Assembly: GCA_038851075.1 (NCBI GenBank)
Contig: JAWCLG010000017.1
Location: forward strand, 1-17,655
Direction of reading: 5' to 3'
Source: Candidatus Hadarchaeales archaeon
Lineage (GTDB): Archaea > Hadarchaeota > Hadarchaeia > Hadarchaeales > Hadarchaeaceae
Length of the DNA stretch: 17,655 bases
The notes under the pieces are model-generated. The model had not been told where the DNA came from. It saw only the letters and a list, made by a program, of their open reading frames with translations, and searched no databases. The number at the start of each line of letters is the position of its first letter. Positions within the stretch are counted from its first letter, which is position 1. Below, piece by piece: positions 1,957-16,808 of the stretch. The position numbers and the translations under genes are program-made.

Positions 1957-4900
1957 ATCTTCAGTGATAATTTTGAGTCCTATTCTGTTGGTTCTTTCCC
2001 CTCAGCTAGCGGCTGGGAAATAGTATTCAATGGAAGAGGCGACCAGTATCAAGTCGTTTCAAACGCATATTCTTACTCTCCCACCAAGTCGTTCCAGCTG
2101 TGGGGACAATATGGTTGGTCAGCTGTTGTGCAGAGGCGTTTTTCCTCAACAGCCTCATCCATAGGCTACGAGTTTGCCATACTAATAGAGGCTAGAGGTA
2201 GTGTCGGCGTAGACCATCCCGCCTTCTTCAACAGAGAGGAGGCTACATGGGGTGCATATTATGCTACAGTTCAATTTGATCATAGTGATGGTAGGATAAA
2301 GGCTGAGGATGGAACCGTTCTTGGATCATGGAGCGCGGGGAGATGGTACAGAATTAAGGTCATACTCAACAGGCAGACAAATACCTACAACGTCTGGTTC
2401 AACGGACAGCTTGTCGGACAAAACCTGAGGGTGTCTAGAACGAGTACTGATAGAATAAACGCGATAGCCCTCACCAGCGCTTGGCCAGGACAGAAAGTCT
2501 ACTACGACGATGTAAGGGTTTTTGCAGTACAGCAGCAGCGAGTCTTAGGGTTTACTATCAGGAGGCGGAGGTGAACGGGCGTAGGCTGGACCCGAACAAT
2601 CCTGAGATAACTGTCAGCCCGGGGCAGAGCATATCTGGCTACCTAAGGGTTACCGTGGATAACAACAGAGGCGGTGCTTGGATAACGCCGGTAATAGGAA
2701 CCGCTAGCTTCACGAGAAGACAGTCCCAATGCATTGCCGGTGACGCGCCTTCGGGAGGGAGCACTCAAACCTACAGCTTCAGCCTGACCGCTCCAAGCCA
2801 GCCGGGAACACACTATATAGGGGTGTTCACAGGCTGGATGTATAGTTGCGACGAAGTGGCTAGCAACGACCATCCACCAAACTATGGTGACGGGGATGAC
2901 GTTTGGGACATGCTGTCGCAAGGCTGGGAGGAGGTTATAGCGAACGGGCAGGCATCCACAGGACCTTACAGGATGCCTAGAAGAGCTATAAGAATAGTAG
3001 TACAGCAGCAACAATTTACCGTTAGGATAGTTAGTTATAACGCGCCATCCACTGCTACCGTTGCTGAGCGTGTCTCCATCCCCATAACTGTGGAGTACAG
3101 CTTCCCCCAAACAGCTACAGCTTATGTAGGTCTTTCTGTGGGGGTTCAAAACCCAGACGGTTCGTGGACTAGAGTTTGGTACAACCCTGAATATGAAACC
3201 CCGAGAACCGGTAGTGGAAGATTATCCTATACAGCAGTCTTTAACGCGCACTCCCAGCCTAGAACCTATAACTACCGTATAGGAGCCATGTACTGGTACC
3301 AAGGCTTAAGCGACTGGGTTATCTCCGACACGAAGACATTCCAGATAGTAGTTCAACAGCCGCAGGATACTGTTGCACCAAGTGTGAGGGTCATAGCGCC
3401 TAACGGCGGTGAGACGCTGACTGTGGGGGAGACGTTCAGGATAAGGTGGGAGGCGTCGGACAACGTAGGCTTACACCATATACACATATTGCTGTTCCAT
3501 GAGGGTAGCCAGATACAGGTTATAGCCAGAGACCTGCAGAACACCGGCTACTACGACTGGACGGTTCCGGACAGGCCTGGGACAAACTACAGGGTTAGGG
3601 TTGTCGCAGTAGATGCTGCGGGAAACTCTGGTCATGACGATAGCGACGCACCGTTCAGCATAGTCCGACAGCAGCAACCTACCGCAGCTAAAGTTCAGAT
3701 CGGCATAATACATACGTATGTTGGCGACCTTAGGATTTGGTTGGGTGTTCAAGGAGGTAGAGAGGTACTGATATGGAACCGTGAAGGAGGCTCTTCAGAC
3801 AATATCTTCAGAGAGTGGGATTTATTTTCTTTAGGCTTCACGGAAAATGACCTGCCTCCATCTTCTTCGAAACGTTGGTATCTAAAGGTCAGGGATGAGG
3901 CATCTGGAGACGAAGGAAGGATAGAATACTTTAGAATAGTTTACCAAGGGCAGACATACGAATCGCAAGACAGGCCCGAGATTAAAGACTACCAAGAGGT
4001 GATGGCATTTATACCATCCCGGCAACAACTGGATAATGCGCAAATAGTTGACTTCAGCCCGCCGAGTGGAGTATTCGAACCCGGGTCTTTGCTGATCGCA
4101 AGAATAAAAGTCAATAATGCAGGCATGACAACTAGAAGCTTCTGGGTTGGGCTGAGCTATCGGAAGCCAGATGGAAGTTATTATGACATTACCCCTCAGC
4201 AGACGAACACGTTAAGCCCAGGACAGGAACAGACGCTAACCTTCCAGTGGCAACTTCCAAAAGATGCTCCAACCGGGGAATATGATGCCATAACAGCTGT
4301 ATGGAATGGCTATGACCCACAAAGAAACATAATGATAGAGCCACAGTATGATAGAAGAGAGGTCCCTAACGCGTTTGAAGTAGAAGAAGAACTAATTTTA
4401 TTTTCCGAAACTATATACTATAGACGTCTTATCCCTACTGGTGTAACATCTGAGGTTCGGCTAGAGCCCATTGGATACGTTTACTTAACAGGACGGCGAA
4501 ACCTTATCGTCGGGCACGAATATTTGTATAAATTAAAGCTAGCTGTTGGGAGAGGGCCGGAAACCGGGAGAGAGTATTTCATCCACGGCGCGTCACCGGA
4601 AAAACCCGGCATTATGACATTCTTTGTACCTGAGGAACTTGACTGGCGATTTGACCCAACAAAAGACTTTACATATCCAAGAATAAGGTGGCAAAGCACT
4701 GTATTGGATTGGTTAAGAAGGTATATAGGTTGGGCTGTTAGGGCAATAATAACACTTATCGCTGGGGCGTTTGGTGGCCCCATTGGCTCAGTAGCAGCTG
4801 GTTTTGTCATGTTTATAATAGGTCATATATTCCAGTCTGAAGACCGAGCATATGATCTCAATCTAGGCTCAACGATCACACCTGCTAATCAAGACCCAGC

Positions 4901-5105
4901 TAAGGCCGACGCAGTTATTATCAACTGGTCCGAGCAAGGGAATACGCAAGGGCCAATAGTAGCAATACTACATGTCATACCTTCAGAATATGCTCGTGGC
5001 AAAGAGTTCCAGATCAGCATAGCTATTGATTTCTGGGTAGGCGGGGGGGAAGACCAAAATATTCTTGTCAGGGGCAACTCTAAAGAAATAACAGTCCGAG
5101 AGTAG
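1957..5105 (+). pseudogene. Large modular secreted/surface protein, 5'-truncated and frameshifted at ~2540
   Basis: Frame is open 1870-2574 with no start before the domain, which begins IFSDNFESY (LamG/ConA-like beta-sandwich). After VQQQ it continues in the 2481..5105 frame (SLRVYYQ). Later modules are separated by Q-rich linkers: Ig-like domains, a PNGGETLTVG...IRW domain, a P-proprotein domain (IIHTYVGDLRIWL...WYLKVRD...GDEGRI), a CARDB-like domain and a hydrophobic Gly-rich segment. No signal peptide seen. Confidence 0.7.
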
Positions 5106-5887: not shown

Positions 5888-6122
5888 TCAAAATGCGGGG
5901 TAGACCATCCACGTCAGCAAAGATTATGCGGGTGCGACAGGTTTTCCCGGATGCGAAGTATAGAGCCGTCGACGCGGGCTGCGGACCAGCTCTAGGAAGC
6001 GACAGAAGCTTTCTTGTAGCTGTCGGGTGTGACGCCATTGAACCTTTCCACCAATGCTCCCTTCTCCCACAACTCTCCCGGCCCGGAGTACGCTAGGGCC
6101 GTAGGGATGCAGTGTTTCTTTA
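5888..6122 (-). pseudogene. Degenerate HhH-GPD (Mig/MutY/EndoIII family) DNA glycosylase fragment
   Basis: Minus strand reads LVERFNGVTPDSYK / frameshift / KLLSLPRAGPQPASTALYFASGK...VDGLPRIL. This aligns with VMEMFNGRIPEQEEKLLALPGVGEYAARAVLCFAYGK..VDANVCRVL of the 16155..16808 gene. Confidence 0.7.
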
Positions 6123-6298
6123 GGAAGCTAATAATATACTTTGCAGCCTGATCCGATTTTGTTTTTAACATAATTTCAGAAATGAAGACACCGTATGTAA
6201 CTTGGGTCTGCTTATACTGGCTCAGTATTCTCTAGACAATCTCGTCAACTATATCCATTTTTATGTTTTCTGTTCCGTTTGTGTGTAGCCTCGTGACC

Positions 6299-6314
6299 TT
6301 TTATAGATTTATAT
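6299..6314 (+). promoter_or_regulatory. Putative archaeal TATA box for the defence operon
   Basis: TTTTATAGATTTATAT about 40-50 nt upstream of the first possible start (6351). Confidence 0.3.
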
Positions 6315-6350: not shown

Positions 6351-8663
6351 GTGAGCGGCCATAGGAAGCTTCTCAGGCCTGTGTTTCTCCGCGAGAAAAG
6401 CGTTAAAATGTATCTTCAGTCCCTCTACATAGCCCTCATCGCGTCCCGCCAGAATGCTGAAATCATACTAAGTCATGAACTCGATGCTCTTGGCGCGGAT
6501 ATGGCAAAAGGTCATGAGCTGGCGAAAAGTTCATTTTTATACTTGAAAAGATGGTGTGGGAGAATCCGCAAATACATAGTCTCAGAGGAGGTTTATTCTA
6601 AACAGATATGCGAGCCTGCCCGCGTGGCGGCAAGATACAGGCTGTCGATATCGACTAGTACGACGCTCTCAGGATACGTATTCTCAAAATCTACGGAATT
6701 TTACGACCCATTTTTCGGTGGAAATGTTGTCGATCTGTCGGTGGTCATACCGTCACTGGGATGCTCTCTGACCCTCCGGTGCCGTGCTGATTGCGTTCGC
6801 GATCTTAACCGAGGAATGTATGAAATTGGGGGTGTGCAACCTATCCCCTACGTTAACAGACTCCATCCAGTTCGTCTCTCCATCCGTGATAATACCCGTG
6901 GGCTTATTCTCAAAGAGCTGGACGTTTTAAAGGCCTCGCTGTATGATCTTCGACGGTACTCCTACTCAATTGCCTTCGAAAACTTCTGCAGAGTCGCCTC
7001 AGCCCAATTGCGGGGAAAACTGCGAGGAGGAGTGGCGCTCGGCGCGACAGAGGTCGTCGCGGGCTACTTATCTGACGTCAGGCTCCCCCTTATCAACATC
7101 GCGGGCCACTTCAACAGAGATGTGGCAATACAGCTTGTATGGAACGGCGACACTAAAGGCGTTGAGGCGCTGAGGGGGAAACCCGTCAGGGCGCTCACCG
7201 TGACGTGGTATGGAAGAGGAAGACAGGTTCTCCCTGAGGCCTTCATCATCGAGCCCGCGGAGAGTGATATGGAGATTCTTGAGGATGACATCATCGGATT
7301 CGTTAGAGCCCGCCTGAAGGTTGATCAGGAGACCCTCCATCATCATTACCCCAATGTCGACCCCTCACGGTTCAGAACAAGCTTAATCAAATGGGATGCG
7401 GGACACATGATTTGGACACAAAATGAAGCCCCCACTGGTGACGATGTTGTTGCCGGCTTCTTGGAACAGAAGCTTTCCCTGATGAGGGTTAGGAGCGAAA
7501 TACCGGGACCGGCAGAGTATGCACCATTAGCTCTGTGGACTCTGATACTTGATCGACAAAAAGTCCGTCTTCAAGAGGTAGCCGAAAAAATGTATACGAA
7601 CAAATCTGTGATGTCGTGTATGGTGGATCTGCTCAGGATGCATGAGAATGAGGAGCCGCTCCCAAAATCATTCAAGGGGCTGTGCTCAATTTTTGGTCCC
7701 GGCTTGACATATGAGGATCTTCTGTGGATGAGGGATACTGGCCTTATCAAGAAATCCGGAGGGGAAGTCAGAGTGACCAAAATAGGGGTCGAGGCCCTTT
7801 ACGCGGCTACAAGAGCGGCGATTCTTGACCCGCTCCAACGGGAGCTGGAGGAGAAAGGGCTCATCGCCATTCCTGACGCTGAGAGCTCTCTGAATGTGCC
7901 GGCATCCCTAATCCTGAGGGGTCTGGAAGATCTGCGGAGTGCGGGCGTGCAGCCGCTACAGCTTGACGGGCTGGATACCCGTTTGGTCTGGGTCAGGAAG
8001 GGCGACGGTCACATGACAGAGTTTGCACGTACAATTCTAGCAAGGCTCGAGTCAGACATCATAGACGCACTCAGCAGAGTACCTCACGCTTTGTCCGTGT
8101 CAAAAATATTAGACGCTCTTAACAGGCGGATGGGCGGTCTCTGGATAAGGGAGATTCTCAACATATTGCGGATGCGCGGAAGGGTAGTTGAGAAAGACGG
8201 AATGTGGATATATCCGGATGAGTCCAAGATAATGGACGTAGTGTCCGGGGAGCCGGACAAATTACTCACACTAGAGGAACTGATGAATAAAGCAATGATA
8301 CCGGCGGCAAGAAAGTATATCGTCTTCTCTCTTCTGGGGGAGCTGGTGAAAAAAGGTGTCGTGGTTGAGCCCCGTAATGGGAGGTGGGCGATAAAAACGG
8401 ATGACCCGCACATCCTTAGGCGCAGAGCCGAGAATCTCATAAAGGCGGACTGTAAGCACCGGCTCCTCGAAATTCTGGACAATTACTACCGCATGGACAT
8501 AGTCACCGCAAGGGCCCGGTTACGTGTCTGTATCAGCCACCACGAAAATTTCAGATTCGGTGGAATTAACGTTGACCGGATGGCGGATGAGATGCTCGAA
8601 GAGCTCGAGAAGGAGGGGCATGTTAGGCTTGCCGGAGGTACAGTATTTAGGAGAGAGAGGTGA
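6351..8663 (+). CDS. Uncharacterised protein with tandem winged-helix-like domains, first gene of DISARM-like operon (start uncertain: 6351, 6408 or 6501)
   Basis: 770 aa ORF whose stop overlaps the RBS of the MTase. The C-terminal half has repeated helix+wing patterns (MRDTGLIKKSGGEVRVTKIG; LRMRGRVVEKDGMWIY; LVKKGVVVEPRNGRWAI; LEKEGHVRLAGG). The N-terminal half is beta-rich. Confidence 0.75.
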   Translation: MSGHRKLLRPVFLREKSVKMYLQSLYIALIASRQNAEIILSHELDALGADMAKGHELAKSSFLYLKRWCGRIRKYIVSEEVYSKQICEPARVAARYRLSISTSTTLSGYVFSKSTEFYDPFFGGNVVDLSVVIPSLGCSLTLRCRADCVRDLNRGMYEIGGVQPIPYVNRLHPVRLSIRDNTRGLILKELDVLKASLYDLRRYSYSIAFENFCRVASAQLRGKLRGGVALGATEVVAGYLSDVRLPLINIAGHFNRDVAIQLVWNGDTKGVEALRGKPVRALTVTWYGRGRQVLPEAFIIEPAESDMEILEDDIIGFVRARLKVDQETLHHHYPNVDPSRFRTSLIKWDAGHMIWTQNEAPTGDDVVAGFLEQKLSLMRVRSEIPGPAEYAPLALWTLILDRQKVRLQEVAEKMYTNKSVMSCMVDLLRMHENEEPLPKSFKGLCSIFGPGLTYEDLLWMRDTGLIKKSGGEVRVTKIGVEALYAATRAAILDPLQRELEEKGLIAIPDAESSLNVPASLILRGLEDLRSAGVQPLQLDGLDTRLVWVRKGDGHMTEFARTILARLESDIIDALSRVPHALSVSKILDALNRRMGGLWIREILNILRMRGRVVEKDGMWIYPDESKIMDVVSGEPDKLLTLEELMNKAMIPAARKYIVFSLLGELVKKGVVVEPRNGRWAIKTDDPHILRRRAENLIKADCKHRLLEILDNYYRMDIVTARARLRVCISHHENFRFGGINVDRMADEMLEELEKEGHVRLAGGTVFRRER

Positions 8664-8673
8664 GGGGACTAGC

Positions 8674-9600
8674 ATGGGCAGGCGGCAGGTTCTCGATCTT
8701 TTCTGCGGGATAGGCGGCTTGGCTCTCGGTTTCGCCCGGGCCGGCTTCGAGGTTGTCGGAATGGATATTGACCATCAGGCCTGCGCGACTTACGAGCTGA
8801 ACGGGGTAGGGAAGACGGTCCAAGCGGACCTCGTTAAGGAGCGGGTGGGAGGAGAGTTCGACCTAATCATAGGCGGCCCGCCGTGCGAGCCGTGGTCGTT
8901 CCTGAACCTGACCAAGAGAGGAAGAGGACATCCAGCATACCCATGCCTGAGGGCCTTTTATGATTCTGTTCGCCGTGTTCGGCCGGTAGCCTTCGTTATG
9001 GAGAACGTGCCGGGGATAAGAGAAGAGCCGGTCCTCCTAGACTGCCTCACCGCGATGTTGCGCATGGGTTATCTGGTGTCTCACAGGATAATAAGATATA
9101 GTGACCACGGGTCGTCAACCGCGAGACGCAGGTTGTTCGTCATTGGAATCATGAAAGGATCGGGCGTTACGCCGGAGCAGGTCTTCGACGGTATAGCGCG
9201 ACGGCCCGCAGGAACCGTGAGGGAAGCCATAGGCGACCTGAGGGGCAGGGGGCCTGACCCGTTAATAGACCATGTCTGGCCGAAAGTGAGAACGGTGGAA
9301 AGATACCTGCGCTACTACGTGTCGGGAAGATACGGGTGGTATATACTGCGGTGGGACCAGCCGGCACCGTCCTTCGGCAACGTCACGAAGACCTACATAC
9401 TTCATCCCGATTCATTCAACGGAGGAGAGACCAGGCCCATATCGGTGCGGGAGGCGCTGCGAATCATGGGGTTTTCGGATGATTTTCGCTTTCCCCAAGG
9501 TACCAGTTTGAGGAAAAAGTATGAGATGATAGCTGACTCCGTCTCGCCAGTATTCTCCGCGGCTCTCGTCAAGTCTCTTAAACGTTCTCTGGGGCTATGA
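8674..9600 (+). CDS. drmMII: DNA (cytosine-5) methyltransferase, DrmMII-like
   Basis: Motif I DLFCGIGG, catalytic IV GGPPC, VI ENV, VIII RRR, IX SVREALRIMGF. ATG 8674 follows a GAGGTGA/GGGG RBS. The gene symbol is assigned by context. Confidence 0.93.
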   Translation: MGRRQVLDLFCGIGGLALGFARAGFEVVGMDIDHQACATYELNGVGKTVQADLVKERVGGEFDLIIGGPPCEPWSFLNLTKRGRGHPAYPCLRAFYDSVRRVRPVAFVMENVPGIREEPVLLDCLTAMLRMGYLVSHRIIRYSDHGSSTARRRLFVIGIMKGSGVTPEQVFDGIARRPAGTVREAIGDLRGRGPDPLIDHVWPKVRTVERYLRYYVSGRYGWYILRWDQPAPSFGNVTKTYILHPDSFNGGETRPISVREALRIMGFSDDFRFPQGTSLRKKYEMIADSVSPVFSAALVKSLKRSLGL

Positions 9601-9649: not shown

Positions 9650-12600
9650 ATGCGCGAGCTATTCGTCACCGAACTTGTAAAAGAGATCCTTGGTCCGCGC
9701 TGCGGTTTACGGGAGGAACTCCCTGAGAGCCCTCTCAGCGAATATATAACCGGGGTTCTAGCGCCCGTTTCTTCCCCGTCGGTTAGGGACATCGATGCGG
9801 AGTCGGGGATTGCGTTTAACGAGTCGCAGGAATATGAGGAGGAGACGGATGACGCCGACATTCATGCTCCGCCGCACCTTTCCCCGGTTCTCAATCCCAA
9901 GTGCAGACCTTCTTCGATCGGACTATCCTTTATGGTGGAATACCACGGTGGAACAACACCGGGCATTGACGTGTGTCTTACATGGTCAAGATATTTTTGG
10001 AATGCTGATAAAAAAGTATGGAAAAGGGAGCCACGATATGCAATAAGAACTATAGCATTGGACAGCGATATAAAATCTTTTCGGATAGGGCCGGATGGTG
10101 CAGAGACTACCCCCGACCGTGCTGAGATACACCTGCACGTTCTCGTTAGAAACCGGCAGGGAAATCGGGCATTCGTCACGCTCTACGCCGTCAACGGAAT
10201 CCGTTTCACTTCCACCTCCACCGGCGACAGGGTGGGGTCCGAGAATCACATTTTTCAGCCTCAGATAAGAGTTGTGTGCTGGTCCGGGACGAGAGTCATT
10301 CCCGTGATACAGAGGGAGCCGCTAAGGAAGGATGAAAAGGAGCTTTCGTTCCTCTATAGGCGACGGCCAATCCTTGCGCGTGGGCACCTGTGCTCCGCGG
10401 TGTGGAAGGATGTCGACCTAGAGAAGCCATATGAGGGGAGGCTCGATTTTCCGGATTGCGTTAATCAATCCCCATTCCGCTGGCCGGATGGCGATATTTT
10501 GCCAGAGCAGGAAAAAAGGAGGTTCGTGTGCCCGGATGTAAGAACGGACTTTGTTCCGGTTTACGCTATCCCCATGCCTGATATGGAGTGGAATGAAGAG
10601 AGTTACGGACCACCTCCCGAATTGAGCGCTGAAGTTCTCGCCGAAAGTTGGGACCTAGACGAGTTGCGTTCGAGGCTGGAACCGTTAGTCAGGGCATATC
10701 GAATATGGATTGGTGAGCTGCGTGGTTCGCTGGTGGAACTATCGGAAAGTGAACGGGAGATTGCGGAACAACTGATAGAACGCTGTGAAGATGCCCTTAA
10801 CCGCATAACGCGGGGTATTGATCTGCTGTGCATGGATGATGATGCGCGGCTCGCATTTTGCTTCGCCAATAAGGCACTCGACATTCAGCGGAGATGGGCT
10901 AGGGGGAGTGGACTGAGATGGAGGCCCTTTCAGCTAGCATACATCCTTTTCACGCTAGAGTCAGTTTTAAGGGAGGACTCCGCTGGGAGGGGCGTCTGCG
11001 ACCTTCTCTGGGTGCCCACCGGCGCTGGAAAGACTGAGGCCTATCTGGCGATAGCGGCACTTGCCATGGCTTACAGGAGGAGGAGAGCGCGGCGCAGAAA
11101 AAACGGCGACCGAACAGGAGGCGGGGTCTGCGTAATCACGCGATACACTCTGAGGCTGCTCACAATACAGCAGTTCAGGAGAGCTCTGGCGATGACCACC
11201 GCATGCGAATATCTTCGTGTCCATGGTCTGGGGCGGGGGGTGCCCGTTGGCTGGAGGCCCTCCAGATGCACCATCAATGACGATTATCTATGGGGATCCC
11301 TGCCATTCTCCATCGGCCTGTGGGTCGGGGGAGGCGTCACTCCTAATAGTCTACTAGACACTTGGGCCGGTAGGCCGGTTCCCGGAGCTCTCAAAATCCT
11401 GAAAAACTCGCACGATACAAGTGAGCCTGCCCAAGTCATGAATTGTCCGGCATGTGGGGCAATACTTTCGGTACCCAAAAACGGCTTAAGGCCGGGAATA
11501 TATAACCTGCATCTAGTGGTGCGTTCATCCGGTGCTCAGAGCCTTCGTAACGCCATCACCTACCTTGCGGGCTCCTACGAGAAGTTGAATGTTGTCTCAG
11601 CAGATCTATCGCCACATCATTCCGACGGATACTTTACTATCTCACTACTGATAGACGTCAAAGACCAGGCCAGCGGCCAAGACGGCCAAGATATTGACAG
11701 ATTATGGGAGGCGCTGAAGCATAAACTAGCTAGTGTTGAGCTCGTCGCGGCCCGCGCCTCTAGACCCGGCTATTTCATCCGCCGATACCGAGGACAGCGC
11801 GGCAATGAGGTTGAATACGATTTTGAGATATTCTGTCCGAACCCGAGCTGCGGGCTGCGCGTTCCGTGGTGTGGCGGAGCACCTGCGGGCTCGATTCATG
11901 GAAGGCCACCGCAGATACCTGCCCGCTCTAACTTTCCTGACGGGAACAATCCTATAGATGTTCAAGAGCCGTTCTGTCTTAACTCATTGAATGTCTCTGA
12001 CCGTATTCCAATCCCGGCTCTCACCGTCGATGATCAGATTTACCACCGGATACCATCCATGCTCGTCTCGACGGTAGATAAATTCGCGAGACCTCCATTC
12101 GAGCCCCGCGCCTCCACCATCTTCGGAAACGTCGAGTTCCATCACTGCATTGGAGGATATTATAGGCGCGGTCTACATTATCTGCAGGTCAAAAAAGGCC
12201 ATCCGTTACCCTCCGGGACCGGTAAGGGGGGGTTTTTCGTCAATATTCCCCCGCTGGACCCACCCGACCTTATACTGCAGGACGAAGTTCATCTCATAGA
12301 AGGGCCGCTGGGCAGCCTAGTGGGCTTCTACGAGACCGCCGTGGATTTCCTATGTAGCACACCGTCCGGGTGGCGAGTGAAGTACATAGCCTCAAGCGCA
12401 ACGGTTCGCGGGGCCGACAGGCAAGTTCGGTCCGTGTTCAACAGAAAGCTCCAAGTTTTTCCGCCCCCCGGTCTCTCAGCGGACGACAGATTCTTCATCA
12501 GAGAGAGGGAGGCCCATTCATTAGATGACAAAATGCCGGGTAGGCTGTATGTCGGAATATGTGCTCCGGGCAGAGGTTCCCACACGCCCTTGGTGAGGAT

Positions 12601-13546
12601 ATGGACGCGTCTTCTTCAAACCGCGTGGAACAGCAGGAACAGTCCCAGTATAGACGCCTTCTGGACGCTCACCGGATACTTTAACGCCATTCGGGAGCTC
12701 GCTGGAACTAGGGCACTGTACAGGGATGACATCAAGGACCGTATTAGCTTCATCGCGCGCGGAGATCCGCGTCCACTTCCGGAGGATAGATGTGTGGAAC
12801 TATCCGGCAGAACCCGGTCTGATGAGCTGCCGAGCATACTCAACCTGCTCAGTGAGCCCTATCCTAATGCTCAGGACGCGCTATTCACAACATCGATGTT
12901 TGGAACCGGTGTAGACATACCCCGTATAGGAATGATGGTGGTAAACGGCCAGCCCAAAACCACAGCGGCTTATATCCAGTCCACCGGACGGGTGGGAAGG
13001 GGCGTGGGTGGTCTGGTGGTAACTTTCCTGAGGGCTTCAAGGCCACGCGACCTAGTTCACTACGAATTCTTTATCGGATACCACCGCCAGCTTCACAGAT
13101 TCGTAGAATCCTTAACCGTGTTCCCCTTCTCGCCGGGAGTCATGGACAGTTTCTCCGGGCCTCTCCTCGTCTTCATGTTGAGAAATATGAGGGAGGCCCT
13201 GATCTCTTGGCATGAAGACGAGTCGGCTCCGAGAATGTCCACCACCAGATCCACTGCTCCTGAGGTGAGGACCGTCATAAATGCTGTAGAGAACCGATAC
13301 CGGAGCACAAATCTTCTGCCGGCTCAGGGAAGGGACATAAGGCAGGAATTGGAATCAAAGCTGGACCGCTGGCAAAATATAGCAAAAGCCCGCCCCGACC
13401 TGCGGTATGCGGAGTATATAGATGTGAGACACTCCGTCGTACTTGGCGACGCGCGGCATCAATACCGCAAGGACATCGATGTGGTCTACCCTGACTCCCC
13501 TCAATCTCTCAGAGAGGTTGAGGACACCGTAGGTTTTGAGGCATAG
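9650..13546 (+). CDS. drmA: DISARM SF2 helicase DrmA
   Basis: WRPFQL (Q motif), PTGAGKTEAY, YTLRLLTIQQF, IGLWVGGGVTPN, TVDKFA, QDEVHLIEGPLGS, SSAT, GYFNAIRELAG, TSMFGTGVD, YIQSTGRVGR, RPRDLVHYE. Lies directly upstream of the DUF1998 and PLD genes. Confidence 0.92.
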   Translation: MRELFVTELVKEILGPRCGLREELPESPLSEYITGVLAPVSSPSVRDIDAESGIAFNESQEYEEETDDADIHAPPHLSPVLNPKCRPSSIGLSFMVEYHGGTTPGIDVCLTWSRYFWNADKKVWKREPRYAIRTIALDSDIKSFRIGPDGAETTPDRAEIHLHVLVRNRQGNRAFVTLYAVNGIRFTSTSTGDRVGSENHIFQPQIRVVCWSGTRVIPVIQREPLRKDEKELSFLYRRRPILARGHLCSAVWKDVDLEKPYEGRLDFPDCVNQSPFRWPDGDILPEQEKRRFVCPDVRTDFVPVYAIPMPDMEWNEESYGPPPELSAEVLAESWDLDELRSRLEPLVRAYRIWIGELRGSLVELSESEREIAEQLIERCEDALNRITRGIDLLCMDDDARLAFCFANKALDIQRRWARGSGLRWRPFQLAYILFTLESVLREDSAGRGVCDLLWVPTGAGKTEAYLAIAALAMAYRRRRARRRKNGDRTGGGVCVITRYTLRLLTIQQFRRALAMTTACEYLRVHGLGRGVPVGWRPSRCTINDDYLWGSLPFSIGLWVGGGVTPNSLLDTWAGRPVPGALKILKNSHDTSEPAQVMNCPACGAILSVPKNGLRPGIYNLHLVVRSSGAQSLRNAITYLAGSYEKLNVVSADLSPHHSDGYFTISLLIDVKDQASGQDGQDIDRLWEALKHKLASVELVAARASRPGYFIRRYRGQRGNEVEYDFEIFCPNPSCGLRVPWCGGAPAGSIHGRPPQIPARSNFPDGNNPIDVQEPFCLNSLNVSDRIPIPALTVDDQIYHRIPSMLVSTVDKFARPPFEPRASTIFGNVEFHHCIGGYYRRGLHYLQVKKGHPLPSGTGKGGFFVNIPPLDPPDLILQDEVHLIEGPLGSLVGFYETAVDFLCSTPSGWRVKYIASSATVRGADRQVRSVFNRKLQVFPPPGLSADDRFFIREREAHSLDDKMPGRLYVGICAPGRGSHTPLVRIWTRLLQTAWNSRNSPSIDAFWTLTGYFNAIRELAGTRALYRDDIKDRISFIARGDPRPLPEDRCVELSGRTRSDELPSILNLLSEPYPNAQDALFTTSMFGTGVDIPRIGMMVVNGQPKTTAAYIQSTGRVGRGVGGLVVTFLRASRPRDLVHYEFFIGYHRQLHRFVESLTVFPFSPGVMDSFSGPLLVFMLRNMREALISWHEDESAPRMSTTRSTAPEVRTVINAVENRYRSTNLLPAQGRDIRQELESKLDRWQNIAKARPDLRYAEYIDVRHSVVLGDARHQYRKDIDVVYPDSPQSLREVEDTVGFEA

Positions 13547-13565
13547 GAGGGATGAGGTCTCCGTG

Positions 13566-15359
13566 GTGCAGCATGTCAGGCTTTCCCAGTTCGTCATCAC
13601 ATACGGTCCGGGCGCAATAATAGAGGGTCTCGGAGGCCCCCGGGTTATACCCCGCCCCGATATCGGGCTCTTCGAATCCGGACGCGGTATGAGGCCTTCT
13701 GATTACGATATAGCCGATCAAAGGATGTCGGAGGGGCTGTTGAACGGAGCGCGTATATTCAGGCTTCCAACCAATGCGGAGTTGGGAGTTCCAGCCGATC
13801 TGCCTCTGTACCGCACACGCAGCTTTCCTGAGTGGCGCCTATGCCATAACAGTCAAGCCCACGGTGCCGGTCGCTCGGTGCTTTTTCGTCTACGGCTATG
13901 CCCCCAGTGCAGAACTGTCGGTAAGCAAATTGAGCCCGTCAGATTCATCGTCGCATGCCCGAAGGGACACATGGATGACGCCGACTGGTATGCGATCATT
14001 CATGGTGACTCGACCACCTGCCCCCACAGAAACTGGTTCTGGTGGAGCGGCGGTGGGGGGGCCCTCAGCAGAATAGAACTAGAATGCCCTCAATGCCATG
14101 CTCCCGCAAATCTGGGACGGGCATATGGTCAGCGGTTCCGCTGCAGCGGCAGATTCCCCGAACGCGAGCCACTTGGCTCCGGGCCGCTCTATCAGGAATG
14201 CGATGGACATATGTTGATAATACAGCGACAGGCCTCCAATCTGCGCATCCCAGAAATAAGGACGCTGTTCACGATTCCGCCGCGTCATACTGAACTGCAT
14301 CTTATGCTTCAAGACACATCAATACGTACAACGTTGATCGCCTTGGAGCGGCGTATATCCTCCAAGCAGACGCTGGAATCCATACTAAATAATTTGGTGA
14401 GAGCGCATCTCATAAAGCAGGACACGGCACACAAGATCCTGAGTTACGAGTGGGGCGAGATTCAGCGGGCCATCAACGAGATACTTACGCCCGTGCCGCG
14501 AGATTATGAGACACTGATTCTGGAAGAATTCCACGCCCTAATACGCGGATCAGCGGAGGGGATACCGCCGTATCGCGGCCCCAAGCCACGATCACAGGTC
14601 TTTCTTGAAATAAATCACCATCTGGTCCAACGTTTCCCACGACCCGGCGGAAAGGTACTACGCGTCGCTCCGATCTCCCGTTTAAGAACGGTCATAGTTC
14701 AGATGGGATACCGCCGTGAGGTCGATACCCAAGTTCCCGCCGATCTGGTGGATATAGGTTTCCCCGACCCGCTTAACCCACACCAAAAATGGTATCCGGG
14801 AGTGGAATTTCTGGGAGAGGGTATCTTCATTATGCTGGATGCTGGGGACGGCTGGCACTTCGATCTGGAAGGTCGGTCGGCAGATGAGTGGCTCAGGGCA
14901 TACCGGAATTCCGGCCAATATCCTGATCATGTTTTCAGAGTAAAAATGAGACATGAGCTTCACCCGGTATTCGTATGGTGGCATACACTGGCGCACCTCC
15001 TCATCAGAAGCGCGTCGATATACTCTGGATATTCTTCCGCATCGATGCGCGAAAGGGTCTTCATCGAGCTTAACGGCTCTAAGGCAAGGGGCGGAATACT
15101 GCTACATGCGACACAGCCCGGAAGTGAGGGAACATTTGGCGGCCTTATCGCATTGTCTCCCCACTTTATGGATATCTTGGAGAACTCCTTGGACACCGTT
15201 CATTCATGTTCATGCGACCCTATCTGTGGCGGAAACCTATTTAGGATGGGTGGCTATATCGGGGCTGCATGCTACGGGTGCCTGTTGGTCTCAGAGACGT
15301 CCTGCGAACACAGAAATATGTGGCTTGACAGAAACCTTCTAAGGGATAACCCACCTTGA
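13566..15359 (+). CDS. drmB: DISARM DrmB, DUF1998 (MrfA-like Zn-binding) protein
   Basis: N-terminal VRLSQFVITYGPGA and RFIVACPKGHMDD. C-terminal HTLAHLLIR...GSEGTFGGL...CSCDPIC...AACYGCLLVSETSCE..N..LDR. GTG at 13566 (or 13563) follows GAGGT; the longest ORF starts at 13536. Confidence 0.92.
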   Translation: MQHVRLSQFVITYGPGAIIEGLGGPRVIPRPDIGLFESGRGMRPSDYDIADQRMSEGLLNGARIFRLPTNAELGVPADLPLYRTRSFPEWRLCHNSQAHGAGRSVLFRLRLCPQCRTVGKQIEPVRFIVACPKGHMDDADWYAIIHGDSTTCPHRNWFWWSGGGGALSRIELECPQCHAPANLGRAYGQRFRCSGRFPEREPLGSGPLYQECDGHMLIIQRQASNLRIPEIRTLFTIPPRHTELHLMLQDTSIRTTLIALERRISSKQTLESILNNLVRAHLIKQDTAHKILSYEWGEIQRAINEILTPVPRDYETLILEEFHALIRGSAEGIPPYRGPKPRSQVFLEINHHLVQRFPRPGGKVLRVAPISRLRTVIVQMGYRREVDTQVPADLVDIGFPDPLNPHQKWYPGVEFLGEGIFIMLDAGDGWHFDLEGRSADEWLRAYRNSGQYPDHVFRVKMRHELHPVFVWWHTLAHLLIRSASIYSGYSSASMRERVFIELNGSKARGGILLHATQPGSEGTFGGLIALSPHFMDILENSLDTVHSCSCDPICGGNLFRMGGYIGAACYGCLLVSETSCEHRNMWLDRNLLRDNPP

Positions 15360-16154: not shown

Positions 16155-16808
16155 ATGAGAGTGGAGGCGGAAATAGTCAGGAGGCTTCTTGACTGGTTTG
16201 CGAAACATGGAAGAGATTATCCATGGAGACGGACAACAGAGCCTTACCGCATACTGATTGCTGAGATGATGCTCCAGAGGACAAAGTCCGACCAAGTTGC
16301 CGGTCTCTACCAGCAGTTCATTCAGAAATACCCCGAGCCGCAGGCTCTGGCGCACGCAAACGTGGAAGAAATCGAAAAATTCCTGCTACCCCTCGGACTG
16401 AGGTGGAGGGCTCGAAAGATAAGGGAAACAGGAAAAACGGTAATGGAGATGTTCAACGGACGGATTCCGGAACAGGAGGAAAAACTTCTCGCCCTTCCGG
16501 GTGTGGGTGAATACGCGGCCAGAGCGGTGCTCTGCTTCGCCTACGGGAAAGACGTGCCGCTGGTGGACGCCAATGTTTGCAGGGTTTTGGGAAGGCTCCT
16601 TAATATGCCTCCCAGAGGTGAGGCAAGAAGGGATAGAAAATTTATCGAAACGGCTCACCGGCTGCACAGATACGTACCTGCCGGCAGAAGCAGGGAGTAC
16701 AACTGGGCCATCTTAGACCTCGCAGCGACAGTATGCACGCCGAGAAGGCCTGTCTGTCCCGAATGCCCGCTGAAAGACCTATGCTCATATCCCAATAAAA
16801 CAATGTAG
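16155..16808 (+). CDS. HhH-GPD [4Fe-4S] DNA glycosylase, probable Mig-type T/U:G mismatch glycosylase
   Basis: RDYPWR, EMMLQRT, HhH LPGVGEY, VDANV, and C-X6-C-X2-C-X5-C. At 217 aa it has no MutT-like C-terminal domain, and it lacks the MutY LQQT and GLGYY motifs. Confidence 0.85.
   Translation: MRVEAEIVRRLLDWFAKHGRDYPWRRTTEPYRILIAEMMLQRTKSDQVAGLYQQFIQKYPEPQALAHANVEEIEKFLLPLGLRWRARKIRETGKTVMEMFNGRIPEQEEKLLALPGVGEYAARAVLCFAYGKDVPLVDANVCRVLGRLLNMPPRGEARRDRKFIETAHRLHRYVPAGRSREYNWAILDLAATVCTPRRPVCPECPLKDLCSYPNKTM

Follow-up and report, generated by a model that had tools for sequence, protein, structure and literature searches.

The 17,655-nt contig JAWCLG010000017.1 of a Candidatus Hadarchaeales archaeon (the window; the genome is 1.0 Mb and 88% complete) carries a class 2 DISARM operon whose first gene, here termed orfX, belongs to an accessory family that is apparently undescribed and sets apart a variant of this defence system. 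The analysis establishes the gene content of the operon, an orfX family, a model of the protein's architecture and its co-inheritance with one clade of the helicase DrmA. The role favoured here, with a probability of about one half, is that of a non-catalytic partner that binds single-stranded DNA (ssDNA) or junctions and loads DrmAB, replacing DrmE in an archaeal class 2 subtype. The parts of this reading differ in strength: orfX is very probably a member of the DISARM machine and probably a non-enzymatic DNA binder, whereas its specific function as a structure-sensing loader stands at even odds.

The orfX open reading frame is genuine, extending from a GTG at 6351 to a stop codon ending at 8663 (770 codons), and the ATG of drmMII lies 10 nt past its end. 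Relative to the 86%-identical homolog of locus L003, orfX has 90 synonymous and 104 non-synonymous codon differences, which is consistent with purifying selection. In metatranscriptomes, 12 short contigs of one library matched orfX, the methyltransferase gene, drmA and drmC, and a second library yielded none; transcription is not demonstrated thereby.

A class 2 DISARM operon without DrmE

Class 2 DISARM, as defined in 10.1101/2021.12.28.474362, consists of the core triplet together with drmMII and occasionally drmE. The window locus has the triplet (drmA helicase, drmB with DUF1998 and drmC phospholipase D (PLD) nuclease) as well as the C5-cytosine methylase drmMII (PF00145; PADLOC DrmMII, PDLC02655); drmE is not present, and no DrmE model matches orfX. 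Under that definition, the operon is class 2 DISARM. Its genes are ordered orfX, drmMII, a long drmA, drmB, a short drmC and then a MIG-like glycosylase. With the Bacillus paralicheniformis type of class 2 system (drmE, drmA, drmB, drmC, drmMII), it shares the drmABC core, the C5 methylase, a probable CCWGG site and one large accessory gene. It differs in having an accessory gene other than drmE, a long-form DrmA and a DrmC that lacks the four-helix bundle found at the N-terminus of most DrmC (PMC12458937). The window DrmC aligns to NF038319 from position 80 onward only and scores 98.6 bits, below the cut-off of 133, because the part corresponding to roughly the first 80 residues of the canonical model is missing; the HxK motif of its PLD nuclease is intact.

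The sequence-only reading had placed orfX in the DrmE/DrmD slot as an unknown protein, and the profile searches set it apart from DrmE. As a control, the true DrmE of locus L052 scores 524 bits on NF038316 and E 4e-12 on PF24957, whereas NF038316 matched none of 10 orfX-family members and PF24957 none of 60 + 28. With hhalign, neither the whole protein nor any single module exceeded a probability of 0.4% against single DrmE sequences, and DrmE-bearing DrmAs fall in a clade other than that of orfX-bearing DrmAs. PADLOC missed the true DrmE controls too, and its silence carries no weight here. It is therefore very improbable that orfX is a highly diverged DrmE, even though the two are similar in length (770 versus 835 aa), occupy the same slot and are compared here by sequence; DrmE has no solved structural relative. 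Even two DrmE sequences hardly align with one another (blastp E 0.16), which limits what sequence tests can say about this kinship. The evidence nevertheless supports orfX being unrelated to DrmE at the sequence level while standing in its slot. Deletion of DrmE abolishes class 2 defence (10.1101/2021.12.28.474362, citing Ofir 2018). One Bacillaceae DrmE is apparently split into open reading frames of 319 and 512 aa (L060:11692-14152).

Pfam, PADLOC and NCBIfam searches assigned orfX to no family and returned only weak winged-helix (wH) matches below cut-off. Table S1 of Bell et al. 2025 (PMC12458937) lists a "DISARM-like" helicase (GKS66576.1) on contig BQXB01000001.1 of the orfX-bearing locus L008, which we take to be the DrmA of that locus, and the Fig. 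1 legend refers to many uncharacterized DISARM-like classes; the abstract, section 4 parts 1-2, the figure legends and the supplements (for five terms) describe no accessory gene with oligonucleotide-binding (OB) and wH domains. No description of an orfX-type protein was found in the DISARM literature covered; Ofir 2018 and some supplements lie outside that coverage, and a mention there is possible.

Predicted architecture of the orfX protein

A fold based on only 4 sequences modelled the N-terminal half poorly (pLDDT 59). The AlphaFold model used instead was built from an alignment of 118 rows, which includes fragments, and it reaches pLDDT 95.2 and pTM 0.87; a separate alignment holds 82 near-full-length members, picked by length and coverage. 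The model predicts a helical domain, two OB-like barrels, a small wH-like unit and five winged helices, and all nine modules occur in 79/94 stored proteins of at least 690 aa (a set that includes near-duplicates and helicase fusions). As in winged-helix repeat proteins, several three-helix-plus-hairpin units are predicted. Thus, the several winged helices and the beta-rich, OB-like N-terminal half proposed from the letters alone reappear in the model, the former with matching structures and the latter with weak OB matches. By hhalign, the small wH-like unit resembles neither wH3 nor wH4. Descent of the N-terminal helical domain from a displaced DrmC four-helix bundle found no support (hhalign 0.1% against 2 DrmC sequences, a comparison of low power).

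Conservation is concentrated in the OB-like half. Barrel 1 is the best-conserved part of the protein (N169 in 82/82, R170 in 81/82, R/K143 in 77/82), and barrel 2 has an aromatic residue at W286 in 72/82 and at Y287 in 80/82. Both barrels display conserved basic and aromatic residues: R143, N169-R170-x-H172, R280 and W286-Y287. Mean pairwise identity is 27-32% in the N-terminal half and lowest, at 15-22%, in the wH array. Among the matches listed by Foldseek are tandem-OB nucleic-acid binders, namely HIN-200 (4l5q, E 4e-4), Thermus and Deinococcus SSB and baculovirus LEF-3, and an Atlas structure search with residues 1-330 of the L008 homolog listed RPA- and CDC24-OB clusters among its matches. 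Atlas feature searches were uninformative (best 0.78 in one, none in the other). The VIA lists were filled by wH domains and barely probed the N-terminal half, so the absence of OB folds there carries no meaning.

From RPA/CST-type OB plus wH proteins (e.g., the Pyrococcus Rpa2 WH, 9f27), orfX differs in carrying five winged helices on one chain, in its patchy occurrence (1/66 genomes of its own phylum; 3 full-length copies in 401 of another) and in its defence context; no Pfam RPA domain scored above cut-off. HIN-200 proteins (AIM2/IFI16/p202) and Zalpha domains (ZBP1, PKZ) are 8-18% identical to it, and many unrelated winged helices score within 1 Z unit, and these likenesses are treated as common folds, not as homology.

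The protein is apparently non-catalytic. Neither Walker A nor DExH motifs nor a helicase family match were found, and the SNF2 helicase motifs of class 1 DrmD are absent, in keeping with the earlier statement that Walker and obvious nuclease motifs are missing. The N-terminal half could in principle hide a catalytic site, nuclease or similar, which would make orfX an effector, and some polar residues are near-invariant (N169 82/82, R170 81, D199 77, E296 75, D/E432 80, H172 65). However, Pfam, NCBIfam, PADLOC and PDB sequence and structure searches revealed no catalytic motif or enzyme fold (VIA barely covering that half), and the operon already has a PLD nuclease; a hidden enzyme is quite improbable.

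The wH array also occurs outside orfX. P0118 (910 aa) is a ResIII-type superfamily 2 (SF2) helicase fused to all five wH units, and the related G460 helicase family carries wH3-wH4 (hhalign 98.8%), with the G460 copy near an adenine-methylase gene. Because of these fusions, the array appears to be used also as a helicase appendage, in cis. The SF2 (ResIII) helicase at L026:10203-12464, also fused to an array homologous to the orfX C-terminal half, has a 202-aa gene and a gene for a 760-aa N6-methylase nearby.

Co-inheritance with DrmA

Five loci with a full-length homolog were read: the window, L003/G308, L008, L012 and L025 (the fifth is called G402 in the tree split). In 5/5, orfX adjoins drmA, in three gene orders. 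The window and L003/G308 are arranged orfX-methyltransferase-A-B-C; L008 and L012 have vsr-methyltransferase-orfX divergent from drmA, with L012 ending inside drmA; and G402 has A-B-C-vsr-orfX, with no C5 methyltransferase on its 13.5-kb contig. In a DrmA tree of 17 rows, all five orfX loci group together in a single clade (SH-aLRT 100), and its deepest split, (window, G308) versus (G402, L008, L012), agrees with the orfX tree. DrmA identity is 44-48% between distant orfX loci and 35-42% to long-DrmA loci with another accessory gene. Across the deep split, orfX is only 22-27% identical, compared with that 44-48% for DrmA; by this measure, orfX evolves faster than DrmA. Among 401 searched genomes of the phylum of Nitrosarchaeum, 5 have a DrmA over the NF038326 cut-off: 3 with orfX and 2 with a different ~500-aa gene after drmC.

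The methyltransferase follows another course. That of the window is only 24% identical to that of L008, which in turn is 76% identical to that of G079, a locus lacking orfX. Since orfX follows the DrmA clade while the methyltransferase is swapped or missing, orfX is tied to DrmABC and not to the methylase, and the tight coupling to the methyltransferase first read from the window does not hold. The outcomes set beforehand as contrary to the sequence-only reading were a lack of winged helix-turn-helix repeats, a match to DrmE and homologs mainly outside defence loci; none was observed, and 5/5 loci lie beside DrmABC.

The varying gene position (first, divergent or last) also bears on another proposal, in which orfX would chiefly scaffold other proteins or regulate transcription of the operon, and its winged helices would serve for docking, as in RPA32-C or the cullin WHB, or bind operators. 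Such a role is doubtful: besides the shifting position, the most strongly conserved residues are basic and aromatic ones in the OB-like half, and a repressor would need far less than two barrels and five winged helices.

CCWGG avoidance and methylation

The window contains 6 CCWGG sites against 43.8 expected, and the six operon genes contain 2 against 29.9 by synonymous shuffling (z -6.2). CCWGG is the most avoided palindromic pattern tested in the window operon, L003 (5 versus 28.6), G402 (16 versus 34.6) and G405. The observed/expected ratio (O/E) is 0.09 in the operon, whereas its median across 85 10-kb segments of the genome is 0.65. In the source genome (G000), no 5-mer is more depleted than CCWGG (O/E 0.66), which holds for nearly all large contigs, and CTWGG is in excess, as deamination of 5-methylcytosine (5mC) would produce. 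The avoidance fits the site reported for class 2 DISARM (10.1101/2021.12.28.474362; PMC11529989), and CCWGG is the probable specificity of the window drmMII. GATC is also low in the source genome (0.76), and drmMII is the only C5 methylase found in the assembly by tblastn.

A different role would follow if orfX itself read this site, binding unmethylated CCWGG duplex and recruiting DrmAB. Target-recognition domains of PLD-plus-helicase restriction systems act like such a reader, the avoidance at the window, L003 and G402 accords with it, and both wH and HIN-type OB folds are able to bind duplex DNA; the methyltransferase swap is no counterargument if the swapped enzymes share one site. However, the avoidance does not point to orfX in particular as the reader: it is as strong in G405, which lacks orfX (1 versus 22), but only weak at the orfX-bearing loci L008 and L012 (z -1.8 and -2.4). 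Moreover, the wH units are the least conserved part of orfX, and 5mC deamination alone explains the genome-wide loss. Site reading by orfX is accordingly unlikely. Methylation reading by winged helices in the manner of DpnI, also put forward earlier, gained no direct support; DpnI is absent among the structure matches listed, although such lists do not exclude DpnI likeness.

A proposed role in loading DrmAB

The loading role favoured here would have orfX work as a one-chain RPA. The conserved OB pair would bind exposed ssDNA or a single-strand/double-strand junction on incoming viral or plasmid DNA, while the variable wH array would grip the adjoining duplex and/or dock the DrmAB helicase. 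The DNA bound by DrmAB is single-stranded or carries a 5ʹ overhang of 7 nt or more; duplex is not bound, and the role of DrmD/DrmE is stated to be open (PMC9142583). Because DrmAB needs such an overhang to load, orfX would supply the substrate. After loading, DrmAB would translocate and DrmC would then cut. Host DNA would be marked by 5mC at CCWGG, as the site avoidance suggests, and the MIG-like glycosylase would repair T:G mismatches arising from this methylation.

Several observations weigh against this proposal. The OB matches are weak: Foldseek target template-modelling (TM) scores are 0.36-0.39 with a root-mean-square deviation of ~9-10 and no query range, and Atlas TM scores of 0.33-0.47 all lie below the Atlas bar, with a query model of pLDDT 0.58. 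The barrel topology is suggested by the strand pattern and the agreement of these weak matches, with no domain-level Z or TM above threshold. Because HIN domains bind double-stranded DNA, the fold does not fix a preference for ssDNA. In addition, the modules are near neutral in net charge, not strongly basic (family means -2.9 to +3.1). The DrmA tree came from a quick search without bootstrap, and the genomic context comprises 5 loci, or approximately three independent lineages, of ~80 full-length clusters. Finally, G274 has the DrmB and DrmC closest to the orfX clade (53-54%) and no orfX found in its genome, although its 5.2-kb contig begins inside drmA.

Distribution of the family

A profile search built from four homologs (E 0.001 or better) yielded 156 clusters at 50% identity, 150 of which are listed and 107 of which reach E ≤1e-30; a word-based homolog search had found 4 proteins only. 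Members bearing an organism name, a minority of the family, are all archaeal: two "Nitrososphaerota archaeon" proteins, Nitrosarchaeum and Nitrosopumilus. The family is rare in the genomes searched. It was found in 1/66 genomes of its own phylum, 4/401 of the Nitrosarchaeum phylum (3 full-length), 2/251 of the order of G066 and 0/5 bacterial genomes, and a search of 76 genomes turned up only the helicase-wH fusion. A motif scan of GTDB gave 14 matches, 2 true homologs and 12 chance matches that were dropped; the same scan of viral contigs gave 0, and a plasmid search with P0014 gave none. A search for related loci found none in genome or viral contigs and at least one in metagenomes. One of the three full-length carriers in the other phylum, G308, has an orfX copy 86% identical to that of the window within 9.9 kb of DNA that is 88.5% identical, and this likeness of G308/L003 across phyla suggests that the entire cassette was recently transferred horizontally.

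Operon features and neighbouring genes

The coordinates are collected in Table 1.

Table 1. Features of the window (position 1 is the first letter of the contig) and members of a second accessory family at other loci.
Feature	Position	Strand	Evidence or remarks
Eroded remnant of an earlier MIG gene	5939..6258	-	divergent from orfX; tblastn 47% over 110 columns, 27-aa gap, then frame change
TATA-like element (TTTATA/TTTATAT)	6300..6314	+	~40 nt 5ʹ of the orfX GTG; sequence read by eye
orfX, accessory subunit of the DISARM operon, 770 aa	6351..8663	+	helical domain, OB, OB, wH-like, five wH
N-terminal four-helix domain (res 15-99)	6393..6647	+	model; conserved N35, G54, W68, P89
OB-like barrel 1 (res 104-180)	6660..6890	+	model, alignment; motif QPxPxVNRxH
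OB-like barrel 2 (res 228-302)	7032..7256	+	model, alignment; motif RxLxVxWY...PE
Small wH-like unit (res 306-355), GxVRxR	7266..7415	+	secondary structure only
Array of five winged helices (res 407-767)	7569..8651	+	model, structure matches, family scan
drmMII, C5-cytosine methyltransferase	8674..9600	+	PF00145 E 5e-42; PADLOC DrmMII (PDLC02655) E 4e-86
drmA, long form, SF2 helicase	9650..13546	+	NF038326 1515 bits, cut-off 999
drmB (DUF1998/MZB)	13536..15359	+	NF038324 431 bits, cut-off 240; PF09369
Short drmC, PLD nuclease (HAKxxxxD), 165 aa	15356..15853	+	PADLOC DrmC E 1e-46
HhH-GPD glycosylase, MIG (T/G mismatch)-like	16155..16808	+	1kea E 3e-41, full length; MutY E 6e-42, N-domain only
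Second accessory family	L045:286-1800, L046:4954-6435, L047:16384-17844, L048:16775-18271

The TATA-like element is a putative part of the orfX promoter; a scan for sigma-70 promoters and terminators performed at chance level. The window glycosylase has no MutY C-terminal domain, aligns over its full length to Mig.MthI (1kea) and has S45 and W where MutY has the adenine-specificity residues Val and Gln/Glu (alignment; PMC2714593). L008, L012 and L025 instead have Vsr, for which the glycosylase would be a functional stand-in. The eroded MIG remnant sits at the position of the intact MIG copy of L003, to which the copy after drmC is only 61% identical. One repair gene seems to have given way to another within the locus, suggesting that T:G repair next to the methylase has been under long-lasting selection. 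Upstream, the window holds the end of a HerA/VirB4-like ATPase with a Zn ribbon (3-935) and a large Ig/P-proprotein surface protein (2128-5105), probably split by a frameshift near 2481-2574. Together with a tyrosine-recombinase-like open reading frame in L003 (461-1345, by eye), these genes suggest an integrative element.

Other accessory genes of long-DrmA systems

Long-DrmA systems without orfX carry after drmC a second unannotated accessory family of ~490-505 aa with FSSxN and LFP motifs; 4/4 members have no Pfam or PADLOC match, and the 2 tested have no NCBIfam match. Kinship of this family to orfX found no support (4 sequences, low power). DISARM is described as keeping DrmA and DrmB separate; in two archaeal genomes, the two are fused in one reading frame of 2155/2181 aa (L047:9378-15842, L048:9691-16233). 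Other archaeal drmA-drmB pairs are immediately followed by a gene for a ResIII helicase of 1040-1190 aa (L049:6238-9357, L050:5638-8772, L051:3031-6606); two of these helicases have a weak HNH-repeat match, and no drmC was detected between drmB and the helicase gene. Beside two DISARM loci, an Mrr_N (wH) domain is fused to a C-terminal domain without family match (L008:16756-17862, L046:2410-3504), which is possibly nucleotidyl-cyclase-like, as judged by eye. At least four families fill the accessory slot that either share no sequence likeness with orfX or have another set of domains.

Significance for archaeal DISARM

orfX defines an archaeal DISARM subtype whose accessory gene was missed by the copies of Pfam, NCBIfam and PADLOC used. 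How DISARM discriminates self from non-self is stated to be open in PMC9142583, where DrmAB is described as binding DNA according to its shape and methylation as modulating defence, and where the role of the accessory genes is deferred to later studies. The accessory subunit of the orfX family has a confident model in which DNA-binding folds are recognisable, and both a candidate site (CCWGG) and clear residues to mutate are at hand, which together make the question directly testable. A bolder and rather unlikely extension is that orfX, as a single rigid chain with a HIN/RPA-like tandem-OB unit and a partly Zalpha-like array of five winged helices, is the self/non-self sensor of this archaeal branch, reading DNA structure and methylation together to license DrmAB. 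If so, archaeal DISARM would draw on several interchangeable OB-wH sensor modules, orfX among them, to define which targets it attacks, and orfX would be a prokaryotic equivalent of the OB- and wH-based innate DNA sensors of eukaryotes.
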